Assembly (NCBI GenBank): GCA_031416415.1 | Contig: JANOTP010000283.1 | Span: forward strand, 1 to 37,496 | Direction of reading: 5' to 3' | Source: Cytophagales bacterium | Lineage (GTDB): Bacteria > Bacteroidota > Bacteroidia > Cytophagales > Cytophagaceae | Length of the DNA stretch: 37,496 bases | Shown here: piece by piece, positions 9,832 to 19,425 of the stretch | Layout of the letters: every line of letters starts with the position of its first letter | Numbering within the stretch: the stretch's first letter is position 1 | Notes under the pieces: model-generated | What the model was told of the DNA's origin: nothing | Seen by the model: only the letters and a program-made list of their open reading frames with translations | Database searches by the model: none | Made by a program: the position numbers and the translations under genes

Positions 9832-10602
9832 TTAAGCCCAAACCTCCTGTATCGTTTCTCTAAACAACGCATTCAACTTTTGTGTCTCTGGGTGTGTATC
9901 TAAAATCCCAGATTTCAAATACAAAGCAAAATAATCTAATTGCTCTACAATGAATTTTTGTAGCGGTTCTATTCTTTTTTCCAAGCCTAATTCTTGTCCA
10001 GATTTCTTTTTGGCCAACAATACTTCAAGTTCTTGTAAAATAGATTTTTCTTTTACGAGTTCGTTAACTAAAATATCAAATTCCATTGGAGGAAAGGTTC
10101 CAAATTTTTCTATCCAAGCACAACATAAAAGCGGCCGAAGTACATAGAAATATTTTTTAATGCGCACCTCTTCGTTTTGCAAATAGTCTTTGTAATTGCC
10201 AGAAGCCATATGGAAATAATGGTTCAGACAAGCCTTTGGATTAAAATATTCTGTAGACAAAACCCGCAACTTTTCTGCTGTTTTATATTCTTCATGGTAT
10301 ACAATAGGACTGCGCAGCCATTCCATTAATGGAGGGTTGGATTTCCTAAACAACTTCAGCGCCTTTCGCAATTCCCAACCACTCAAGTCCAATTCGTTGG
10401 GCAACATTTCTTCCATAGAATCTTTCTGCTCATCAATAGACATATACCATTCAGGGCGCTGCACATAAATAAACCGAACATCCCAATCGCTGTTCACCGA
10501 TTCAAACCCCCAAGCACGACTGCCACTTTCAACTGCAAAAAGGATTTTTATATCTTTTCGGTTTTCGAGGTTTTTTAATTCTGATTGTATGTGGGTTTTC
10601 AT
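9832..10602 (-). CDS. Pol-beta superfamily nucleotidyltransferase (COG3541/PF10127-like predicted NTase), intact copy
   Basis: N-terminal GS..D.D motif: ILFAVESGSRAWGFESVNSDWDVRFIY; 256 aa. Confidence 0.75.
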   Translation of the reverse strand: MKTHIQSELKNLENRKDIKILFAVESGSRAWGFESVNSDWDVRFIYVQRPEWYMSIDEQKDSMEEMLPNELDLSGWELRKALKLFRKSNPPLMEWLRSPIVYHEEYKTAEKLRVLSTEYFNPKACLNHYFHMASGNYKDYLQNEEVRIKKYFYVLRPLLCCAWIEKFGTFPPMEFDILVNELVKEKSILQELEVLLAKKKSGQELGLEKRIEPLQKFIVEQLDYFALYLKSGILDTHPETQKLNALFRETIQEVWA

Positions 10603-10620
10603 TGTTTCGTTGTCAATAAA

Positions 10621-10850
10621 TTAATTTGTCTCGTCCTAAAATAAGTATTTCGCCCTTGTTGGTGCTTTTCACCAACAAGCTGTTTCTACGCAGCACTAAT
10701 GCCCTTTTCGTAAATGATTTTTTTTAATTTCGATGTTAATTTGTCTCGTCCTAAAATAAGTATTTCGCCCTTGTTGGTGCTTTTCACCAACAAGCTGTTT
10801 CTACGCAGCGCTAATGCCCTTTTCGTAAATGATTTTTTTTAATTTCGATG
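10621..10850. repeat. 115-bp direct tandem duplication (2 units) covering the flank plus the left end of the MITE-like element
   Basis: Units 10621-10735 and 10736-10850 are near-identical (ttaatttgtctcgtcctaaaataagtatttcgcccttgttggtgcttttcaccaacaagctgtttctacgcagc.ctaatgccc..). Confidence 0.85.
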
Positions 10851-10978
10851 TTAACCACGACCTACCTATTTTGTCAGAAAGAATAAGTTGAGTTTTATAA
10901 ATATTAAAAGCAAATAGATTGGTTACTTTGGAGTCACGAGCAACGCTTGTTGGTGAAAAGCACCAACAAGGGCGAAAA
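10764..10978. mobile_element. MITE-like ~215-bp element, copy 1; terminal inverted repeats are themselves hairpins (TTCGCCCTTGTTGGTGCTTTTCACCAACAAGC ... GCTTGTTGGTGAAAAGCACCAACAAGGGCGAA)
   Basis: Left and right ends are exact reverse complements; each end contains a 10-bp stem CTTGTTGGTG/CACCAACAAG; no ORF; second copy at 12918-13133. Confidence 0.6.
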
Positions 10979-10983
10979 TCGCT

Positions 10984-11259
10984 TTATAAATTATTATAGG
11001 TATTACTTTTAATTCTAAATGTAACTATTTGTTCTGCCCAAGAAATCTTTTCGGAAAAAGATTCATTTTCAAATTCAAAGTATTTTCTCTGAATTAGCTT
11101 TCCAATGTTTTCCGAAAGAATCCAATTTATGAGTTCTTTTGAATGCTCTGTCTTATCATAAAACCCTCTTATTTTATTCCTTTCAAAAAGCGCTATTTCT
11201 TCATTAACTATAAAGTTTGACAAATGTTTAATTGAAGCTTTAGATTCTGTAACCTCCAA
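10984..11259 (-). CDS. hypothetical small protein (91 aa)
   Basis: ORF only. Confidence 0.4.
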   Translation of the reverse strand: MEVTESKASIKHLSNFIVNEEIALFERNKIRGFYDKTEHSKELINWILSENIGKLIQRKYFEFENESFSEKISWAEQIVTFRIKSNTYNNL

Positions 11260-11729
11260 AGAATCAACAAATCATTAAATATAGGATAGAAATGAGCTAT
11301 TACTGCAAAATAATTCTGGAATTCGGATGCTGCTTTTTCACTTTCATCATATAACATACTTTCCCAAAGAACAATCATATATTCTTGAACCAGTTTTTGC
11401 TCCTCTTCCTTCCAATTTTTCCAACCTGCTAAGGAGAGTTTTTCAAATGCAATCCAAATTTCATAAGGACTTCTAAGTTCTGCTATAAGTTCGAATATTC
11501 TAGGCAAAAAATGTTTGTAATCCAATTCGTTGCCCCATGTCGTAATTGCTTTGCCTGTAAAACGCGATAAATCTTCGTCCGACAAATCTTTAAGTGATTT
11601 AGAAAACAATTCTTGATTCCATTTTTCCAAATCTCCATATAACGGACTTCCACTCATAGACAAATTACTATGATACTTTTCAAAGGTTTCATATAATTGA
11701 GCTATAATCTTTTCTATTTTGGAAGTCAT
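11208..11729 (-). CDS. hypothetical protein; probable start at MTSKIEKII (track ORF extends to 11768)
   Basis: ORF; the internal start removes the overlap with the upstream gene. Confidence 0.45.
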   Translation of the reverse strand: MTSKIEKIIAQLYETFEKYHSNLSMSGSPLYGDLEKWNQELFSKSLKDLSDEDLSRFTGKAITTWGNELDYKHFLPRIFELIAELRSPYEIWIAFEKLSLAGWKNWKEEEQKLVQEYMIVLWESMLYDESEKAASEFQNYFAVIAHFYPIFNDLLILWRLQNLKLQLNICQTL

Positions 11730-11752
11730 TATTAATATTGTATTGATATAGT

Positions 11753-12214
11753 TTAGGAAGGCAACCAACCTAATTCAAATTCTTTGATATAATTTTTTAG
11801 TTCTTCAACTCTGTTTATCCCATCTAAATCCATGCAAATTATTTTTAGGTTACCATGGTCTGCTGTCTCTGGTAAACAAGTTGCAAAAAAGCATTGCCAA
11901 AAAGTATCGGCTAATTTTTCATCATTGTGCCAAGTGGTCATTACTTCAATTTCATTATGATTTTCCATTGTCTCCATAACTACAATATTTTCGTCAAAAA
12001 GGTCATGAAGTTTTTCTCCGAATTGTCCGTGTCCTTTAAATTCTAAAATGTTTCTTGAAATTGATGTTCTTACAAACTTGTCAAACCTATTTGAATCAGG
12101 TTTATCGTTAGCAATTGCAAGACAAACCCAGTCATTATCGGGAAGTTCGTCCTCAAAGTTATTATAGTCTAACCAAAAAACCATTCTGTTAAAATATTTT
12201 CCTATTGGTATCAT
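11753..12214 (-). CDS. hypothetical protein (153 aa), acidic, immunity-protein-like size
   Basis: ORF only. Confidence 0.5.
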   Translation of the reverse strand: MIPIGKYFNRMVFWLDYNNFEDELPDNDWVCLAIANDKPDSNRFDKFVRTSISRNILEFKGHGQFGEKLHDLFDENIVVMETMENHNEIEVMTTWHNDEKLADTFWQCFFATCLPETADHGNLKIICMDLDGINRVEELKNYIKEFELGWLPS

Positions 12215-12466
12215 AATCTTCTTTTAAAATGCTACAATAAGGTTTAGAGCATTGCGTTCGGATGGGTTTCAAAGCAAAAATTGATAATAAGCGTTAAACT
12301 TGAATATAGAGATATAAGTTTACAAACAATCCCACCTGAAACAAAACCCGTGTTTTGTTCAGTTATTTTTTCCCTCTGACTCTTTAATTTTTTCAATTAT
12401 ATCAAGCCATGTAAGATTCTTTTCTAGAAATTTACCATATTCATCTAATAGAACTAATAATTTTAT

Positions 12467-12826
12467 TCAAATAAAGGTCAATCCATATCCAAGTTTCCAT
12501 ATTACTAATTGATCATTTACATATGGATCATTCCAAAGTGTTTTTAGTTTTTCTTGAATAATGCTTTCTTTCATTTCGTCAATTCCTTCAGCTAGTTTAA
12601 CTGTATCTCTCATTTGAATTTCTTTCATTTTATAAAGGTTTTCTCTAGCAAGTTTATCAATGATTATTGTAAAATTCTCCTCAAAATCTATAATTGCCTC
12701 AAGCTGTTCTTTTATATGTTCGATTTCGAATGGTTCTGATGTATGTGCTGCAATATTCCTTAATTTCCTATTAACGTTGAGTGCGCTATAAAATTTCGAG
12801 TCAATAAGTCGAAATGCATAAAGCAA
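12467..12826 (-). CDS. hypothetical protein (119 aa)
   Basis: ORF only. Confidence 0.45.
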   Translation of the reverse strand: MLYAFRLIDSKFYSALNVNRKLRNIAAHTSEPFEIEHIKEQLEAIIDFEENFTIIIDKLARENLYKMKEIQMRDTVKLAEGIDEMKESIIQEKLKTLWNDPYVNDQLVIWKLGYGLTFI

Positions 12827-12917
12827 TTCTATCTTACTTGATAGAGAACTTAATGTTCCTGGATAATCTAATAATTTGTTTTTATATCTTTTAGACTCAT
12901 CAGGTAGAATTAATTAT

Positions 12918-13133
12918 TTCGCACTTGTTGGTGCTTTTCACCAACAAGCTGTGTCTACGCAGCGCTAATGCCCTTTTCGTAAATGATTTTTTCTAATTTC
13001 GATTTTAACCACGACCTACCATTTTTGTCAGAAAGAATAAGTTGAGTTTTATAAATGTTGAAAGCGATTAGATTGGTTACTTTGAAGTAACGAGCAACGC
13101 TTGTTGGTGAAAAGCACCAACAAGGGCGAAAAA
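12918..13133. mobile_element. MITE-like element, copy 2 (one mismatch in the left TIR: GCAC instead of GCCC)
   Basis: ~90% identical to copy 1 across its full length, including both hairpin TIRs. Confidence 0.6.
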
Positions 13134-13136
13134 ACC

Positions 13137-13230
13137 CCCAAGCTCGGCTCCCACTTTCTACAGCATAAAGAATTTTTATATCTTTGCGGTTTTCGAGGTT
13201 TTTTAATTCTGATTGTATATGGGCTTTCAT
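13137..13230 (-). pseudogene. truncated 5' fragment (~31 codons) of a second copy of the nucleotidyltransferase gene, abutting the MITE-like element
   Basis: 13141-13233 is ~85% identical to 10508-10602 (MKAHIQSELKNLENRKDIKILYAVESGSRAWGF vs MKTHIQSELKNLENRKDIKILFAVESGSRAWGF). Homology stops exactly at the element's right end, and the 91-aa track ORF simply reads on into the repeat. Confidence 0.6.
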
Positions 13231-13349
13231 CGTTTCATATTAAATAATTAAAACCGTCTTTATACAAACCTCCAAGGTTTTGAAAACCTTGGAAGTTTCG
13301 TTGTTAACGATTCCAGCATGTCAGTTGAAAACAGCATCCAAGGAGCGAG

Positions 13350-14024
13350 CTAATAGCTAATTTTTAGAAGTTTGTCATTAACAATATATTTAATTTCGCC
13401 TGTTCCAATAATTCTAGAACCTTCTCTAAACTCAAACTCCATTCCTTCTTTCAAGCAACCCGCAAAATAGTCTGGTGATAACATTTTTATTTTTGCCTCA
13501 ACAGTGTCACCAGAGAAAACGGTTTCTTTACCAATAAAAGTTTGCTGGCCGGATGTCTGCATTTCCGTAAAATCAAACTTTAATTGTGGTCTGTATCCAT
13601 TGATTGCTGGTGTTTTTCTTCCCCCTTGTTCTGTTGTCAAGTATTGCAGTTTTGCAATAAAGTCAACCATTTTAAACTCTTCATTATAATAGCTCATAAC
13701 GCTATCAATTATTTTATCGAAGTCTGCTTGGTTACAAAATCTTATTGACGTGTCTAGAAGTTCCATTATTGAACTTCCCGCTTCTAATTGCCATGCGTTT
13801 TGTCCATTAAATTTTTTAGCATCAATTTTTTCAATTGTTAATGGCGTGCCAAAATATTCCTTTAGTTCTCTTATAAAATCTAGAATTTCTATTTGGTTAA
13901 AAGTTGGCCAATCATTCATTGCATCCAAAAACAGCGTTGCAATTTCTTTTAACTTATGTTCTTTAGTATCAATTTCAACTAACGTCCTTAGTGTCGAATT
14001 TGTTATGATATTATTACTGTCCAT
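13350..14024 (-). CDS. fusion protein: unknown N-terminal domain + C-terminal EF-Tu domain-3-like beta-barrel
   Basis: C-terminus KLQYLTTEQGGRKTPAINGYRPQLKFDFTEMQTSG...SGDTVEAKIKML..EFEFREGSRIIGTGEI aligns motif-for-motif with EF-Tu domain 3 (VYVLSKEEGGRHTPFFxGYRPQFYFRTTDVTG...PGDNxxMxVxLI..RFAIREGGRTVGAGVV). Confidence 0.65.
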   Translation of the reverse strand: MDSNNIITNSTLRTLVEIDTKEHKLKEIATLFLDAMNDWPTFNQIEILDFIRELKEYFGTPLTIEKIDAKKFNGQNAWQLEAGSSIMELLDTSIRFCNQADFDKIIDSVMSYYNEEFKMVDFIAKLQYLTTEQGGRKTPAINGYRPQLKFDFTEMQTSGQQTFIGKETVFSGDTVEAKIKMLSPDYFAGCLKEGMEFEFREGSRIIGTGEIKYIVNDKLLKISY

Positions 14025-14127
14025 TGTCTATGCCTCCTGATTATATTTGTATATGAGGAACTTATCAATCATCCCCTTCTTTGGTCTTTGGCGCCCGAAC
14101 TTTAGGTATTAGCCAGAAAAAGGACTA

Positions 14128-14487
14128 TTACGAAAGACCCTTCTGCGACGAAAGAATTGCTATAATGTGCTCAAGAAGATGAATGAATGTCGATTTTTCA
14201 AATAAGTTATTTAATCTGTCAGAAACAATGGTCTTCTCAACTACATTATTAAGTTTCCTAATAGCTCCCTCCAAATCCTCCACCAATTTAGTCCTGTCTA
14301 AATCCTTGCTTGCTGTTATAATGTCGATTGGCTCAAATGAAAAAGCCCCTATGCCGCAGCATTCCGCCATGCAAGATACTTCGAGTTTACCGAGGAAGTC
14401 GAAAGAAGTATTCAAAAGAACATCAACATCGAATAAATTTTTATCCGATGTATCCGGTTCTATCCATATAAAATTGTATTGTTCCAT
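14128..14487 (-). CDS. hypothetical protein (119 aa) with a CMAECCGIG Cys cluster
   Basis: ORF only. Confidence 0.45.
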   Translation of the reverse strand: MEQYNFIWIEPDTSDKNLFDVDVLLNTSFDFLGKLEVSCMAECCGIGAFSFEPIDIITASKDLDRTKLVEDLEGAIRKLNNVVEKTIVSDRLNNLFEKSTFIHLLEHIIAILSSQKGLS

Positions 14488-14612
14488 AGTTTCATTTTAT
14501 AAATAGTATTTTCAATCAAAATTGTAATCAAGCAATTTTTCAAAACCCTAGTATACCCTCTAACTATTTTACCTCCATAAGCGTAGTTTTTCCTATCAAA
14601 AACCACCTAATT

Positions 14613-14646
14613 AAACCACCAAGGCTTTTAATACCCTTGGTGGTTT
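14613..14646 (-). terminator. hairpin AAACCACCAAGG-N10-CCTTGGTGGTTT downstream of rtcB (probable terminator; a related copy lies at 13272-13292)
   Basis: Perfect 12-bp stem 19 nt after the rtcB stop; T5 follows ~11 nt later on the minus strand. Confidence 0.5.
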
Positions 14647-14664
14647 AATTTATCTACGAAGAAC

Positions 14665-16089
14665 CTAATCCTCCCTACTCCCATCATCGGCCATTCTTAC
14701 CATCTTCGGAATAAATTTCGCTACTACTTCGACCAAATCCGTTTGGGCTGCCATCACGGTATGGATATCTTTGTAGGCTCTTGGGGCTTCGTCTAGGCCG
14801 CCTCCAATAAGCGTTACGCCATGATCTTTCAATACCGATTTCATTTCTTCTGAGGTAATTGTTTTCTCGGCCATCGTTCTGCTCATTTGTCTCCCTGCAC
14901 CGTGCGAGGCGGAGTTCAAGGCATTTTCAACACCTTTTCCTCTTACTAGAAATCCTGGAGCAGTCATAGAACCTGGAATAATTCCCATCACGCCTTTGGC
15001 TGCTGGGGTTGCTCCTTTTCTATGAACAATCACTTCTTCGCCAAGATAGAGTTCTTTCCAAGCAAAATTATGATGGTTCTCCACTTTCGCCAATACTTGC
15101 GCACCAATTGCTTTCGTAAGTTTTTCGTGAATCACTTGATGACAAGCCGAAGCATATTCTCCTGCCAAATTCATGGCCATCCAATATTCCATTCCCTCTG
15201 CACTGTTCAAATCCATATAAGCCAATTGAGCCGCTTCTCTTGGGAGTGGACAAAGTTGTTTTGCCAATTTTGTATAATGCCCTGCGATCATAGCACCCAT
15301 TCCTCTAGAGCCCGAGTGTGTCAGCAAGGCCAAATATTTTCCTTTCGGAATATTCAATTCGACATCCGCTTTTTCTAATTCTATAATCCCCCATTCCACA
15401 AAGTGATTTCCTCCACCTGAAGAACCCAATTGCGAATAGGCTTTATCCTTCAAGGCTTTCACCATTGGATTGATTTTGAACACTTCATTTTCCAACACTT
15501 CATGATCTGCTTTGTATTGTCCATGAAACCCATGACCCGCACCAAATTTTGTATGGGCAATCAATTCTCTTTTATACTTACTTTCATTTTCAAGAAAATG
15601 ATCTGCAGAGATATCGTAGATGGACAAACACATTCTGCAACCGATATCAACACCCACACCATAAGGAATAATCGCATTTCTTGTGGCCAACACGCCACCA
15701 ATTGGAAGTCCATATCCTTGGTGCGCATCGGGCATCAAAGCTCCTGCCACTGAAACAGGCAGGCGAACGGCCATGTTCATTTGTTTTAATGCACCTTCTT
15801 CAATAAAGTCTGCTCCGTAAATTTTATAGGGTGCTGGCTCCTCTTTCAATTCAATTATTTTTTCTATTGTTCTTTCTGCTATCAGCGCTTCCGCTAAATT
15901 TTTCAATTGTGCGTTTTCTAAATAACCTTCTGGAGCCTCCACTACTTTTGACAAGATGCTTAGAATTTCTTCCTTGGAATTTTCATTACCCAATTCTACC
16001 GAGGCCTCCAAAGCTATTGCCATCACTGACGTTTGTGGGTATCCAAGTGAAATAAGTTCTGTTCCTGATATGGTTATTGTATTCATCAT
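14665..16089 (-). CDS. rtcB: RtcB family RNA 3'-phosphate/2',3'-cyclic phosphate ligase (tRNA-splicing ligase family), ~85-aa N-terminal extension
   Basis: ..LMPDAHQGYGLPIGGVLAT..GVGVDIGCRMC.. and the remaining RtcB His/Cys metal-site blocks (..NHHNF..); 474 aa. Confidence 0.9.
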   Translation of the reverse strand: MMNTITISGTELISLGYPQTSVMAIALEASVELGNENSKEEILSILSKVVEAPEGYLENAQLKNLAEALIAERTIEKIIELKEEPAPYKIYGADFIEEGALKQMNMAVRLPVSVAGALMPDAHQGYGLPIGGVLATRNAIIPYGVGVDIGCRMCLSIYDISADHFLENESKYKRELIAHTKFGAGHGFHGQYKADHEVLENEVFKINPMVKALKDKAYSQLGSSGGGNHFVEWGIIELEKADVELNIPKGKYLALLTHSGSRGMGAMIAGHYTKLAKQLCPLPREAAQLAYMDLNSAEGMEYWMAMNLAGEYASACHQVIHEKLTKAIGAQVLAKVENHHNFAWKELYLGEEVIVHRKGATPAAKGVMGIIPGSMTAPGFLVRGKGVENALNSASHGAGRQMSRTMAEKTITSEEMKSVLKDHGVTLIGGGLDEAPRAYKDIHTVMAAQTDLVEVVAKFIPKMVRMADDGSRED

Positions 16090-16142: not shown

Positions 16143-16200
16143 ATACTCAGGGCTAACTACTAACCCTCAGTAACCCCGATGGGATTCGAACCCATATTTC
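16143..16200 (-). ncRNA. candidate structured RNA element just upstream of rtcB: canonical tRNA T-arm (ATGGG-TTCGAAT-CCCAT) + acceptor-like CGGGGTT + 7-bp hairpin CTGAGGG-N11-CCCTCAG
   Basis: Exact T-loop consensus GTTCGAATC on the rtcB strand; cannot be folded into a full cloverleaf; GC-elevated ORF-free stretch 16090-16461. Confidence 0.3.
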
Positions 16201-16382
16201 TGCTGAAGCAGACAGCGGGCTGTAAATACGCTTCCCTACTTTTGTTTCCAATTTCGGTGCAACTGTAAACTTTGCTCGTTAGTCCGCGCAGGTCTAACGA
16301 GATAATCCACGCACTCCACGGTTCCGATTTTACCGCAGCTTTTCCTTTTAAGCTACAGGGTCAATTGTTGTCGTTTTAACAC

Positions 16383-16461: not shown

Positions 16462-17565
16462 TTACTTCTTCTCAGGTACAAACAATTGTTTCAATTGCTC
16501 CACCACTTGAGAGTTTCCTCCCAATGAAATACTGTTGATTTTTTCCGCGATTTTCTCTACGTACTCCATCTCTTTCAATTTGAACAGCATTGCGTTATCT
16601 TCCATCAATTTTGCAGTGTTCAGCAAACTTCTGGTCGAAGCAGTTTCCTCTCTTCGCATGATGGTATTGGCTTGCGCTTTTTTCTCGGCTACCAACACTT
16701 GGTTCATAATTTCTTTCACATCGCCTGGCAATATGATGTCTTTTATCCCGCAAGCACTCAACGCAACACCCATTCCCTCCGCTTTTTCTTTTACCGCTTC
16801 CAAAATAATTGGCGCTACCGATTCTTTTCGGTCCAACAATTCATCGAGCGTCAACGAGCCAATGACGGCACGAATAGAAAGCTGAATAAGGGTATACAAT
16901 TGTTTCTCATAGTCCTTATTTTCAAGCAATGCTTTTTCAATATCCGAAACTTTGTATTGTGCATGGAAATTTAATCGTATCGCTGCTTTGTCTTTTGTAA
17001 GCAATTCTTGTCCAGAAATTTCCATGGACACCAATCGTGTATCGGCTTTCAACACCGTCATCACAACTGGATTTTTCCAGAAATAATACACCCCAGGACC
17101 AAGCATTCGTTCGAATTTTCCTTCTACAAATAACAAACCTTTCTCATAAGACTCTACCACATAAACGCGCACGTAGTTTAGAATTTCTTTTCTTACCAAC
17201 GTAAGTTTATCAATCGCTTCAGTAATTTCTGGTTTGCTAATATCGGCGATTACGAATTCGTGTTTAATCACACCGTTCCAAAACGCATAGCGTCCAGCAG
17301 TAAGCACATTTTTGAAAACACCGTTTTCATAATGCAAGGCAAGTTCGTTGTCTTTCACTTCAACTGAATTCAATAAGGCTGCTAATGCTTCGTCTTTCAA
17401 GAGAATACCAAGGTCAAAAGGAGCTTGGAAGGCTTTTGTCATATCGTATTCCAAAACAGATTCGTTTGGTAGCACCCAAAAAACTCCGTTGGTAATTACT
17501 CTATTATAAGCACCATTTTTAACTACTAATCCTACTGTGTAGGCATTCACTCTTTTACGTAACAT
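16462..17565 (-). CDS. SPFH/band-7 (stomatin/prohibitin-like) domain protein
   Basis: 367 aa; band-7-like core with a C-terminal coiled region ..KEIMNQVLVAEKKAQANTIMRREETA.. Confidence 0.65.
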   Translation of the reverse strand: MLRKRVNAYTVGLVVKNGAYNRVITNGVFWVLPNESVLEYDMTKAFQAPFDLGILLKDEALAALLNSVEVKDNELALHYENGVFKNVLTAGRYAFWNGVIKHEFVIADISKPEITEAIDKLTLVRKEILNYVRVYVVESYEKGLLFVEGKFERMLGPGVYYFWKNPVVMTVLKADTRLVSMEISGQELLTKDKAAIRLNFHAQYKVSDIEKALLENKDYEKQLYTLIQLSIRAVIGSLTLDELLDRKESVAPIILEAVKEKAEGMGVALSACGIKDIILPGDVKEIMNQVLVAEKKAQANTIMRREETASTRSLLNTAKLMEDNAMLFKLKEMEYVEKIAEKINSISLGGNSQVVEQLKQLFVPEKK

Positions 17566-17902
17566 ACTTGTATAATTTAATTTTTAAAACTTTTATTCTT
17601 TTTAATAAAACAAAGCGAAACAATTCTTCCACTTTCGAGGAGCATGATTTTAGCAAAAACGCTAGAACTGGTTTTTATAACGATACTTCTCTCTGGTCTA
17701 TCTCTTCCCTCCTTAGCGTTACAGGAGGGAAGAAGCGGCTTTCTGAAGTTTCCTTTTTATAAAAAGCAGGCCTTTTTATTGTTGCGGTATCCACTATACT
17801 TCAAACGATTGCAGAATTGTTTTTTGTCCGAAGACCAAACCGAACTGCTTTCGCTTTGTTTTTTCAGGTACACCTTTTTAAAGAAGTGGTGCGCTTCGGA
17901 AT

Positions 17903-17985
17903 ATGGAGTGTTAGTCCATAGTCTGCTACTCTACCAACTGAGTTATCCTGTCTCTCGACACGAGTGGGATTCGAACCCACGACCC
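17903..17985 (-). ncRNA. candidate ncRNA module: circularly permuted tRNA-like structure (T-arm, then acceptor stem capped by a GAGA tetraloop, then D-arm, then anticodon-like hairpin), Y-RNA (YrlA)-like tRNA mimic
   Basis: Minus strand 5'-GTGGGTTCGAATCCCAC-TCGTGTC-GAGA-GACAGGA-TA-ACTCAGTTGGTAGAGT-AGCAGACT-ATGGACTAACACTCCAT-3'; TCGTGTC/GACAGGA pair 6 of 7 bp; lies in an 850-nt ORF-free stretch. Confidence 0.35.
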
Positions 17986-18252
17986 ACAGGGTGGTGAACA
18001 ACCTTTCACTTACACAAGCAGCATACAATTTTTACATCGCACTACTGGGCTATTCAGAAACCCAAATCCGGTCTTGGCAAACTACTCGCTGTCCGCGCTT
18101 TCTTGTCTTTCGACAAGGAAGATCTTTTGCTCCCCAACTGGCGAACGGAATATTTTCAATGAATGATTTATCTTATTTAATCCTATCATTCAATCAGCTA
18201 AATCATTGTAAAGAACGTTTTCTTTTTGTTGACGATTCAAAATAACAAGGCC

Positions 18253-18273
18253 AGTACGCAGACTATTTGCGTA
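18253..18273. promoter_or_regulatory. operator-like imperfect palindrome gTACGCAgaCTATTTGCGTAg, upstream of the WYL regulator
   Basis: Shares the 12-mer CTATTTGCGTAG (reverse complement CTACGCAAATAG) with the site at 18353-18373. Confidence 0.4.
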
Positions 18274-18352
18274 GTAAAAAACTAATTTAAAATAACTTAT
18301 AATTATTTGACTAACAATTAAATAAATTGAAAAATAAATACACAAATTTTTT

Positions 18353-18373
18353 CTACGCAAATAGATTGCGTAG
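18353..18373. promoter_or_regulatory. operator-like palindrome CTACGCAAATAGATTGCGTAG, 42 nt upstream of the WYL regulator start
   Basis: 8-bp perfect arms CTACGCAA/TTGCGTAG; second member of the pair 100 bp from the first. Confidence 0.4.
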
Positions 18374-18414
18374 TTCGACTTTTCTTTTGATCTTGTTCTG
18401 CTAAAATAAAGCTT

Positions 18415-19425
18415 ATGCCGATAAATAAACAAGCGCTCATTCGTTACAAAGTCATTGACCAATGTTTACAAAACCGACAACGCAAATGGTCTTTGGAAGA
18501 TCTAGTGGAAGCCTGCTCTGAAGCGCTCTATGAATTTGAGGGTATAAAGAAAGGAGTAAGTTTACGCACCGTGCAACTAGATATACAAACCATGCGCAGT
18601 GAAAAGCTTGGCTACAATGCTCCGATTATAGTAGTAGAGAAAAAATATTATTCTTACGAAGACAAAAATTACAGCATTTCAAAAATTCCACTCTCCAAAC
18701 AAGACTTAGGAATGCTTACAGAAGTGGTAGGACTTTTGAAACAATTGAAAGGACTAAATTATTTTGAAGAAATGAGTGGCATGATTGCCAAGTTGGAAGA
18801 CAAAGTAATAACACAAAAAACTCAAGGCCGATCAACGATTGATTTTGAAAAAAACGAATTGTTGAAAGGGCTTGAGTTTATAGATCCTTTGCACAAAGCC
18901 ATTTTAAATGAAACGACCGTTCAAATTACCTATCAATCCTTCAAAGCACGCAACGCATCTGATGTTATTTTTTACCCCTATCTATTAAAGGAATACAGAA
19001 ATCGATGGTTTGTTTTTGGGATGACTAGAAGGGGCAAAGCCTTACAAAACCTTGCCCTCGACCGTATCGTGGAAGTGCACGAATTGCCAAACATAACGCC
19101 AGACCCACCAACTGCAGAGATTGAAAATTATTATGCAGACGTTATAGGCGTTACCAAATCACTGGGTCAAAAAGCTTCTACGGTGGTGTTGAGTGTAGAC
19201 AAAGCTACTATTCCTTATGTTCTAACAAAACCACTTCATGCTTCGCAAACCATTTTAAAAGAACCAACCGAAGAAGGGCATACATTGATAAGTATAAATG
19301 TTGTTTTAAACTTTGAATTGGAAAGGGAGATTTTGGGTTTTGGAGAAAAGGTAAAAGTTTTAGCGCCTAGGATTTTAGTGAAGAGTATTAAGAAACGGTT
19401 GGAAGAGGCGGTTGGAAAGTATTAG
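18415..19425 (+). CDS. WYL-domain transcriptional regulator (HTH-WYL-WCX architecture)
   Basis: N-terminal HTH (ALIRYKVIDQCLQN); central WYL signature FYPYLLKEYRNRWFVFG; 336 aa, typical length. Confidence 0.75.
   Translation: MPINKQALIRYKVIDQCLQNRQRKWSLEDLVEACSEALYEFEGIKKGVSLRTVQLDIQTMRSEKLGYNAPIIVVEKKYYSYEDKNYSISKIPLSKQDLGMLTEVVGLLKQLKGLNYFEEMSGMIAKLEDKVITQKTQGRSTIDFEKNELLKGLEFIDPLHKAILNETTVQITYQSFKARNASDVIFYPYLLKEYRNRWFVFGMTRRGKALQNLALDRIVEVHELPNITPDPPTAEIENYYADVIGVTKSLGQKASTVVLSVDKATIPYVLTKPLHASQTILKEPTEEGHTLISINVVLNFELEREILGFGEKVKVLAPRILVKSIKKRLEEAVGKY

Follow-up and report, generated by a model that had tools for sequence, protein, structure and literature searches.

The window, the whole stretch of 37,496 nucleotides of Cytophagales DNA analysed here, carries on its minus strand a run of tRNA-type arms in which the T-arm precedes the D-arm, upstream of the genes for an SPFH/Band-7 protein and the RNA ligase RtcB. 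The locus raises the question of whether these arms are the debris of a tRNA gene, part of a Y RNA or a tRNA mimic of another kind, and of what such an RNA would do beside an RNA repair operon. Bacterial RtcB operons are widespread, and their substrates and RNA cofactors are poorly defined. The permuted tRNA-like domain used here for comparison is that of YrlA, which carries, near its 5' end, the motif GNCGAAN0-1G that is thought to contact Ro; according to Chen et al. (2014, PMC4201824), nearly all YrlA genes share a strand with rsr and lie no more than about 4 kb from it. In the Salmonella rsr-yrlBA-rtcBA operon, yrlA and yrlB are co-transcribed (PMC7790460).

The permuted unit

The element mimics a tRNA in circularly permuted form: its T-arm, loop-capped acceptor stem and D-arm are arranged around a four-way junction, and a closing helix of 4–5 bp stands in for the anticodon stem (Table 1). 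The unit has the full set of nucleotides required for the tRNA L-shape. In tRNA numbering it carries U8, A14, G15, G18, G19, A21, G46, C48, T54, T55, C56 and A58. Inspection of the minus strand shows all the parts listed by the first-pass annotation (the T-arm, the acceptor hairpin with six of seven pairs, the TA dinucleotide, the D-arm and a last hairpin). The closing helix and the GGGTC variable loop had been missed there. The last hairpin is free, resembles an anticodon arm and lies 3 nt downstream of the unit.

No ordinary tRNA is found at the site by ARAGORN or by Rfam at the gathering threshold, and neither ARAGORN nor the Rfam tRNA model yields a cloverleaf in normal gene order, in agreement with the earlier statement that this is not a tRNA gene; in the whole window, ARAGORN places two ordinary tRNA genes, both elsewhere, and Rfam at its gathering threshold concurs. 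ARAGORN finds no tmRNA at the site, and the Rfam tmRNA model matches an 18-nt T-arm only. When the surrounding 1 kb was compared with Rfam at permissive settings, the single meaningful match was to YrlA (RF02553; 18012–17895, minus strand; 36.4 bits, E = 4.4e-6), the model aligning strongly across the tRNA-like core and poorly across the outer stem. The search with Y-RNA and tRNA covariance models that had been proposed at the outset returns YrlA, at a score below threshold, and no tRNA. Folded as a single sequence, the 200 nt that surround the unit give no significant result by themselves (z = -1.5), and the evidence for the unit therefore comes from comparison.

Table 1. Features of the permuted tRNA-like locus, in window coordinates
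Feature	Position	Strand	Details and basis
Permuted tRNA-like unit	17922..17990	minus	sequence, Rfam YrlA match, alignment, R1 covariance model
Closing helix of unit	17990-17986, 17926-17922	minus	CTGT 17989-17986 with GCAG 17926-17923
tRNA-type variable loop	17985-17981	minus	GGGTC, directly 5' of T-arm
T-arm	17980-17964	minus	GTGGG/TTCGAAT/CCCAC
Capped acceptor-like hairpin	17963-17946	minus	TCGTGTC-GAGA-GACAGGA; 6/7 pairs, third is G.G
U8/A9	17945-17944	minus	TA
D-arm	17943-17928	minus	ACTC/AGTTGGTA/GAGT
A26 of unit	17927	minus	
Anticodon-arm-like hairpin	17919..17903	minus	ATGGA/CTAACAC/TCCAT; comparison with two-unit relatives
5' structured domain	17991..18128 (about)	minus	three hairpins, including GGGTTTCTGAATAGCCC and AGTGC-hairpin-GTATGCTGCTT
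H-type pseudoknot	17871..17897	minus	comparison across loci
Pseudoknot S1	17897-17894, 17886-17883	minus	GAAG with CTTC; 94.5% paired across loci
Pseudoknot S2	17891-17888, 17874-17871	minus	loop CACC with GGTG over A-rich linker
3' structured domain	17607..17862	minus	long-range helix AAAACAAAGCGAAA 17862-17849 with TTTCGCTTTGTTTT 17620-17607
Palindrome 1	18353..18373	not assigned	CTACGCAAT-CTA-TTTGCGTAG; conserved in L081, L083
Palindrome 2	18254..18274	not assigned	CTACGCA-AATAGTC-TGCGTAC; conserved in L081, L083, L087, L088
Bacteroidota-type -7 box (candidate)	18238..18245	minus	TTATTTTG; TTTG block conserved in relatives
SPFH/Band-7 (slipin) gene	16462..17565	minus	367 aa
Second tRNA-like RNA, normal arm order	16172..16362	minus	acceptor GACCCTG/CGGGGTT, D-arm 16353-16337, T-arm 16195-16179
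RtcB RNA ligase gene	14665..16089	minus	474 aa; Pfam PF01139, E 3e-82
RlaP nucleotidyltransferase gene, full-length	9832..10602	minus	tblastn with L081 RlaP: 64% identity, 256 aa
WYL/WCX-domain regulator gene, divergent	18415..19425	plus	Pfam PF13280, PF25583

Conservation and covariation

Homologues of the Band-7 protein (~65% identity) number in the thousands in Bacteroidota. A Band-7 genome scan provided 80 species-representative loci (Cytophagales, Chitinophagales and others) of at least 542 confirmed species-level matches, to which six closer metagenomic relatives were added. In nearly all loci, a simple parser places a permuted unit on the Band-7 strand and 350–660 nt upstream of that gene. 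Sixty-seven orthologous units were picked for alignment by a parser that requires pairing; 92% of the cells are paired, a figure inflated by that requirement, as compared to 43–51% when the 3' partners are slid. Compensatory changes are present at 19 of the 21 base pairs and in all four helices of the unit, and none of 500 shuffles reached the observed covariation. The Levitt pair 15:48, which the parser ignores, also covaries (CG in 52 units, UA in 7 and AU in 2), with nine double changes against 1.4 expected and, again, 0/500 shuffles at the observed value. Conservation is complete or no lower than 90% at U8, A14, G18/19, A21, T54, T55, C56 and A58.

With the covariance model built from the 67-unit alignment (R1), 69 of the 80 loci give a match of at least 58 bits; among these are loci whose unit-1 sequences were outside the seed (L013, L018, L035, L036, L069 and L080). 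Eight further loci score 36–57 bits, and the upstream sequence is absent in two. The window unit, itself a member of the seed, scores 77.8 bits. L017, L019 and L020 have no permuted unit; a tRNA-Tyr-like gene with its arms in normal order lies ~50 nt ahead of Band-7 in its stead, and the unit can thus be dispensed with or replaced. Among relatives, the acceptor stem is 5 to 8 bp long; the GNRA cap that the first-pass annotation had singled out is present in the window (GAGA) and is not conserved elsewhere in the family. The fold of the unit is conserved, and the unit is strictly linked to, and co-oriented with, the Band-7 and RtcB genes.

These data bear directly on the view that the arms are what is left, without function, of a tRNA gene after rearrangement or decay. 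A rearrangement could in principle put two canonical arms in the wrong order, but the permuted order occupies the same position in at least 69 of 80 species from several Bacteroidota orders, and compensatory changes are seen in every helix and in the tertiary pair. This conservation and covariation refute the remnant, to which we attach next to no probability; chance is ruled out on the same grounds of conserved position, compensatory changes and the 15:48 pair. The first-pass annotation had proposed a tRNA-like domain that is circularly permuted and capped at its acceptor stem, had argued against simple decay and had named a remnant lacking conservation as the finding that would overturn it. 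The alignment and covariation bear out the proposal, and the module, which lies beside rtcB, is conserved in related Bacteroidota.

Relationship to YrlA

The order of the unit (variable loop, T-arm, capped acceptor-like stem, D-arm) is that of YrlA, the tRNA tertiary nucleotides are shared, including the covarying 15:48 pair, and the unit is encoded in an RtcB repair operon. It could accordingly be a genuine Y RNA, an orthologue of YrlA binding a Ro60/Rsr protein whose gene lies elsewhere in the genome: YrlA is its best Rfam match, the topology and tertiary signature are as described for YrlA (PMC4201824), and it shares linkage to rtcB with the Salmonella RNAs. However, the score of 36.4 bits is below the 69-bit gathering score of RF02553, a threshold reached by none of 13 related loci. 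The Ro motif is absent from the window and occurs in 1 of 64 loci, which is at chance level (1.3 expected by shuffling). There is no long 5'/3' terminal stem; the flanks of the short closing helix fold as separate domains. No TROVE/Ro gene was found among the ~20 of 46 window ORFs of at least 100 aa that were scanned with Pfam, including all those of at least 400 aa, nor does TROVE/Ro form a recurrent ORF cluster in the 80 loci with 5-kb flanks, whereas YrlA is usually within 4 kb of rsr (PMC4201824). The unit differs from YrlA further in being paired with SPFH/Band-7 and embedded in an RNA of ~650 nt, most relatives having two tandem units and a complete anticodon arm.

As the Rfam threshold, Ro motif, terminal stem and TROVE linkage all fail, we do not file the unit as a Y RNA, and we regard YrlA orthology as improbable. 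The unit would be better described as built like the YrlA effector domain and, judging from motif, stem, neighbourhood and score, as probably independent of Ro. The likeness to Y RNAs suggested by the first-pass annotation holds for the topology, with YrlA the closest curated family, and does not extend to the long Ro-binding stem, the Ro motif or a nearby TROVE gene. The long closing stem that was expected in place of the anticodon stem is a helix of only 4–5 bp, and the flanks predicted to form it are otherwise engaged, the 5' flank as a separate domain and the 3' flank in the anticodon-like hairpin and the pseudoknot.

A scan of viral contigs for the T-arm...D-arm pattern retrieved mostly tandem tRNA genes. 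L129, L146 and L157, all viral, hold true permuted units with long closing stems; these resemble phage YrlA and are uninformative on the Band-7-linked family.

Tandem units and the anticodon-type arm

The number of units per locus ranges from one to three, with two in tandem in ~60 of the 80 loci and three in L049; the window, L081, L083, L085, L087 and L088 are among the single-unit loci. In two-unit relatives, unit 1 is closed by a short helix. Unit 2 starts 9–17 nt after unit 1 and lacks a closing helix (R1 covers model positions 12–66 only), and a complete anticodon-type arm is located one nucleotide 3' of it. Set against these relatives, the single-unit loci have lost the T-arm, acceptor and D-arm of unit 2 and kept the anticodon-type arm, and the window hairpin corresponds to the anticodon arm of unit 2.

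A perfectly paired 5-bp arm is present in 67 of 75 loci, and 50 of the 67 have a 7-nt loop. The 50 loops retain Y32 (47), U33 (43), R37 (45) and A38 (42), and contain 26 different middle triplets, which drift even between near-identical strains. With the loop residues kept and the triplet free, the arm is a generic mimic of an anticodon loop without a conserved anticodon; the last hairpin of the first-pass annotation is reinterpreted accordingly.

A normal-order tRNA running from D-arm 1 to T-arm 2 of two-unit relatives was considered and rejected. The Rfam tRNA model gives marginal scores (30–38 bits), each acceptor hairpin pairs with itself and covaries, and the outer strands of L065 are not complementary when compared by eye.

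In the permuted tRNA genes of Cyanidioschyzon merolae, and in two-piece tmRNA genes, the 3' half lies upstream and a linker caps the acceptor ends, and the products mature to functional RNAs with free CCA ends. If the present locus were a permuted tRNA gene of the C. merolae kind, its transcript would be ligated or circularised by RtcB and opened at the acceptor loop into a working tRNA. The 3' half does precede the 5' half, the ligase of the pathway is encoded next to the unit, two-unit relatives have the complete anticodon arm, and the YrlA of M. smegmatis is cleaved by RNase P and gains CCA (PMC4201824). Against this, the closing helix of the window unit carries no anticodon loop, the acceptor is 5–8 bp long and not a fixed 7, the cap contains neither an encoded CCA nor a discriminator, and the triplets drift freely. 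We consider a permuted tRNA gene very improbable.

The leader RNA

The permuted unit is one domain of a multi-domain structured RNA of ~650 nt located between the WYL regulator and the Band-7–RtcB–RlaP genes. The non-coding gap of 849 nt (17566–18414) folds at z = -4.9 relative to shuffled sequence. From 5' to 3', the leader contains a 5' domain, one to three permuted units, the anticodon-like arm, an A-rich H-type pseudoknot and a 3' domain of ~250 nt. As structure is conserved on both sides of the unit, the unit is one domain of an RNA that fills the space from the putative promoter to the start codon. In the 5' domain, RNAalifold predicts 24 pairs from 20 sequences, 17 of them with compensatory changes, and the core is conserved across the family. 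In the pseudoknot, the S2 loop and tail of the same locus are complementary over at least four bases in 97% of loci, as compared to 33% when the tails of other loci are used. As an alternative, the 3' strand of the pseudoknot (UGGUG) was considered as a partner for CCACC, which immediately precedes the unit on its 5' side. This pairing was rejected; in four loci compared by eye the loop covaries with S2, whereas the 5' flank does not. The long-range helix of the 3' domain has a complementarity score of 9.9 within loci and 7.1 across loci, and its strands covary family-wide. Its partner strand is ~240 nt downstream, and the domain ends ~42 nt before the Band-7 ATG in the window (20–50 nt in the family). 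Some 650 nt of strongly structured RNA escape current Rfam-based annotation.

The -7 box candidate (Table 1) would place a putative transcription start near 18230. Both palindromes have the form CTACGCA-N7-TGCGTAG, and palindrome 2 is located just upstream of the putative leader promoter. Their sequences would fit operators, palindrome 1 being a candidate operator of the divergent WYL regulator. No obvious second promoter before Band-7 was seen in the leader. A sigma-70 promoter and terminator scan, which is ill-suited to Bacteroidota, gave one 'terminator' that is a hairpin of the 5' domain on the wrong strand.

Neighbouring genes

The Band-7 protein has two N-terminal β-repeats, and no predicted membrane anchor was seen. 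It is modelled as a soluble protein composed of the β-repeats, the SPFH domain and a long helix, and it weakly resembles the major vault protein. Proteins of the SPFH family assemble into rings or cages. A block of ~4 kb is inserted between rtcB and the RlaP gene and starts with a second copy of 33 aa from the RlaP N-terminus. The divergent WYL arrangement is the same in L081, L083, L085 and L087. Clustering of ORFs of at least 120 aa from the 80 loci gave Band-7 (80), RtcB (51), an RNaseH_like and AAA-ATPase pair (32) and WYL/WCX (31), with RlaP also recurrent.

The second tRNA-like RNA, between the Band-7 and rtcB genes, has its arms in normal order, with ~140 nt replacing the anticodon arm. 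It is near-invariant in five relatives, its acceptor shows covariation, and it matches no Rfam family.

Proposed role

On balance, we lean towards the RNA being a tRNA-mimic cofactor or scaffold partner of the Band-7–RtcB–RlaP repair module. In favour of a partner role, the structured RNA is continuous up to the Band-7 start codon. For its expression, processing, protein partners and scaffold role we infer the following. The leader RNA would be transcribed with the operon from a WYL-controlled promoter, for which yrlA and yrlB of Salmonella offer a parallel. Its tRNA-shaped, end-capped handle would be a recognition site for proteins that act on tRNA (RtcB, RlaP, modification enzymes or tRNA-damaging nucleases), and the RNA may be organised on an oligomeric SPFH/Band-7 scaffold. 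The assembly would then be a Ro-independent counterpart of Ro–YrlA. Given the acceptor length of 5–8 bp, enzymes that gauge the dimensions of tRNA, RNase P among them, would not necessarily recognise the RNA.

The same features could serve a cis-acting sentinel or decoy, in which the mimic and the anticodon-like loop would bait the anticodon or tRNA nucleases against which RtcB acts. If the leader were cut, or the nuclease titrated, the stability or translation of the Band-7–RtcB mRNA might change or, by conjecture, the fragments might be sensed by the WYL protein. The RNA is the 5' leader of the operon, its 3' domain ending ~40 nt before the ATG, and the loop keeps the anticodon-loop residues around a free triplet. 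Damaged tRNA fragments induce the Salmonella rtc operon, and YrlA has been suggested as a possible competitive inhibitor of an anticodon nuclease (Hughes et al. 2020, PMC7790460).

Substitution rates between close relatives also bear on this. The window and L085/L087 have Band-7 proteins that are 99% identical, and differ at 15.5% of 4-fold sites and at ~5% of the leader overall. In the acceptor hairpin, 10 of 18 positions differ and yet remain paired, and in the anticodon-like loop 2–4 of 7 differ, so that both outpace the 4-fold sites. A rough binomial estimate for the hairpin excess is ~1e-4, for a comparison chosen post hoc in which paired changes are not independent events. Since the hairpin and the loop evolve faster than the synonymous proxy, a decoy or sensor fits at least as well as a scaffold. 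Counting against the sentinel, about half of the loci have RNaseH_like and AAA-ATPase genes upstream instead of WYL. We hold the sentinel to be possible, though on the unlikely side.

A more far-reaching and rather doubtful proposal is that the ~650-nt RNA represents a previously uncurated class which, with the vault-like SPFH protein and RtcB, might form a Ro-independent ribonucleoprotein that baits or senses tRNA nucleases, its anticodon-like loop and acceptor cap being under diversifying pressure.

Whichever role applies, a YrlA-type tRNA mimic is kept here without Ro, is coupled to an SPFH scaffold protein and is very common in Bacteroidota. Its carriers include cultured organisms, among them Chryseolinea serpens DSM 24574 (L011), Chitinophaga filiformis DSM 527 (L066), Niastella caeni and Fulvivirga marina, and the covariation-supported map of the RNA makes the scaffold, decoy and sensor roles testable, together with the signal sensed by the WYL regulator and the cytoplasmic role of the SPFH protein.

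Comparison with known systems

The general idea of a Band-7-linked RNA of the YrlA type was already published as a prediction in 2016. According to the 2018 preprint of Wang et al. (bioRxiv 10.1101/312249), Burroughs and Aravind (2016, NAR 44:8525) proposed Band-7 and tRNA-like RNAs as RtcB cofactors, and YrlA 'occasionally' adjoins Band-7 in that bioinformatic work. The preprint also describes the band 7-associated tRNA or b7a-tRNA, a predicted and strongly tRNA-like RNA found beside RtcB and a Band-7 protein in some bacteria, and gives the Band-7-associated RNAs as predictions without experimental validation as of 2018. A literature search for later work on b7a-tRNA found none beyond this preprint. 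The present unit shares with b7a-tRNA the presence of a tRNA-like non-coding RNA beside an SPFH/Band-7 gene and RtcB. It differs in that b7a-tRNA, as the preprint presents it, resembles authentic tRNA, whereas the window unit is permuted and is not called by ARAGORN. Normal-order tRNA-like genes do occur near the unit, as the tRNA-Tyr-like gene in relatives and as the RNA at 16362–16172 in the window.

Measured against the idea as relayed in the preprint, three points appear to be additional. The permuted unit is the rule in Bacteroidota and not an occasional feature; two units in tandem, together with an entire anticodon arm, are usual, within a long structured leader that has a pseudoknot and two further domains; and the Bacteroidota unit is, by the tests done, independent of Ro.

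The permuted tRNA genes of C. merolae and the two-piece tmRNA genes share with the unit a tRNA-like fold whose 3' half precedes its 5' half. The window family differs in having no encoded CCA, no tag ORF and an acceptor of variable length, the window unit has no loop on its closing helix, and no feature points to aminoacylation. For the protein component, the closest parallel is the vault, in which the major vault protein is associated with vault RNA; vaults and SPFH cages share with the present system an SPFH-fold scaffold protein that has N-terminal β-repeats and a long C-terminal helix and is tied genetically to a small structured RNA.

A second tRNA-like RNA

Besides the leader RNA that precedes the Band-7, RtcB and RlaP genes, the window contains a second tRNA-like RNA, with its arms in the normal order. 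The acceptor stem is 7 bp long (GACCCTG/CGGGGTT), the D-arm is formed by GCTT/AAAAGGAAA/AGCT and the T-arm by ATGGG/TTCGAAT/CCCAT; there is no encoded CCA, and the anticodon-arm position is taken by a structured insert of about 140 nt. The RNA is nearly invariant across the window and the related loci L083, L085, L087 and L088, with covariation in the acceptor stem and one internal hairpin. It is also found in L002, L011, L013, L014 and L064, with the L014 copy being a minimal version that lacks the insert. It matched no Rfam family.

Coordinates of the features discussed (L numbers denote related loci)
Feature	Location	Strand	Position or source
Second tRNA-like RNA, normal arm order	window 16172-16362	minus	between Band-7 and rtcB
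Insert, about 4 kb	window 10603-14664		between rtcB and intact RlaP gene (10602-9832)
RlaP N-terminus duplicate, 33 aa	window 13132-13230		start of insert
Pseudoknot	window 17871-17897
Anticodon-like loop	window 17908-17914		leader RNA
Acceptor hairpin	window 17946-17963		leader RNA
tRNA-Tyr(GTA)-like gene	L002 4302-4387; L005 4259-4344; L014 4250-4335; L017 4887-4971		ARAGORN
Marginal Rfam tRNA matches	L068 4587-4650; L014 4558-4618; L055 4500-4561; L023 4512-4573		tandem units
tRNA gene arrays	L013 332-1564; L060 3280-7635; L070 2804-3862; L080 929-2620; also L043, L023, L055, L065
RNaseH_like (PF04308) and AAA/STAND-like ATPase genes	L035 3358-4434; L048 2636-3124; ~30 other Chitinophagales loci
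Permuted tRNA-like units, viral contigs	L129 1153-1225; L146 2122-2195; L157 2336-2408

Variable sites in the leader RNA

Two elements of the leader are hotspots of change. When the window is compared with L085 and L087, 10 of the 18 positions of the acceptor hairpin differ with pairing kept, and the anticodon-like loop differs at two to four of its seven positions. The remainder of the leader diverges by ~5%; for the 4-fold synonymous sites of Band-7 the figure is 15.5%. Both hotspots might result from recombination or diversifying selection.

Gene neighbourhood

In some relatives, ARAGORN predicts a tRNA-Tyr(GTA) of 85–86 nt immediately upstream of the leader; in L017, L019 and L020, such an element takes the place of the leader. 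This gene may be the published tRNA associated with Band-7 (b7a-tRNA; Burroughs and Aravind 2016). The window has none at the corresponding position. In the tandem permuted units of L068, L014, L055 and L023, the Rfam tRNA model gives marginal matches (30–38 bits, threshold 29) running from D-arm 1 to T-arm 2, which may surface as odd tRNAs or pseudogenes in the output of annotation pipelines.

Many of the repair loci have arrays of 6–20 tightly spaced tRNA genes, representing many anticodons, as same-strand neighbours, which suggests a linked 'spare tRNA' set. At 32 loci, genes for an RNaseH_like protein and an AAA/STAND-like ATPase lie upstream of the leader and co-oriented with it; these loci appear to belong mostly to Chitinophagales and not to the Cytophagales and window-group loci in which the divergent WYL regulator occurs.

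The insert between rtcB and RlaP encodes DUF6331, DUF7684, a protein of 224 aa that matches EF-Tu domain 3, and other ORFs. As it opens with a duplicate of the RlaP N-terminus, the arrangement suggests an insertion with target duplication.

Comparison with known systems

The pseudoknot consists of P1 (4–5 bp), a loop of 7 nt, an A-rich linker and P2 (4–5 bp). It shares this topology with preQ1-I riboswitches and other H-type pseudoknots that are compact and A-rich; the Rfam PreQ1 model gave no match to it. The permuted units in phage contigs are enclosed by long complementary flanks, the classic architecture of the bacterial Y RNA YrlA, whereas those of Bacteroidota have a short closing helix.
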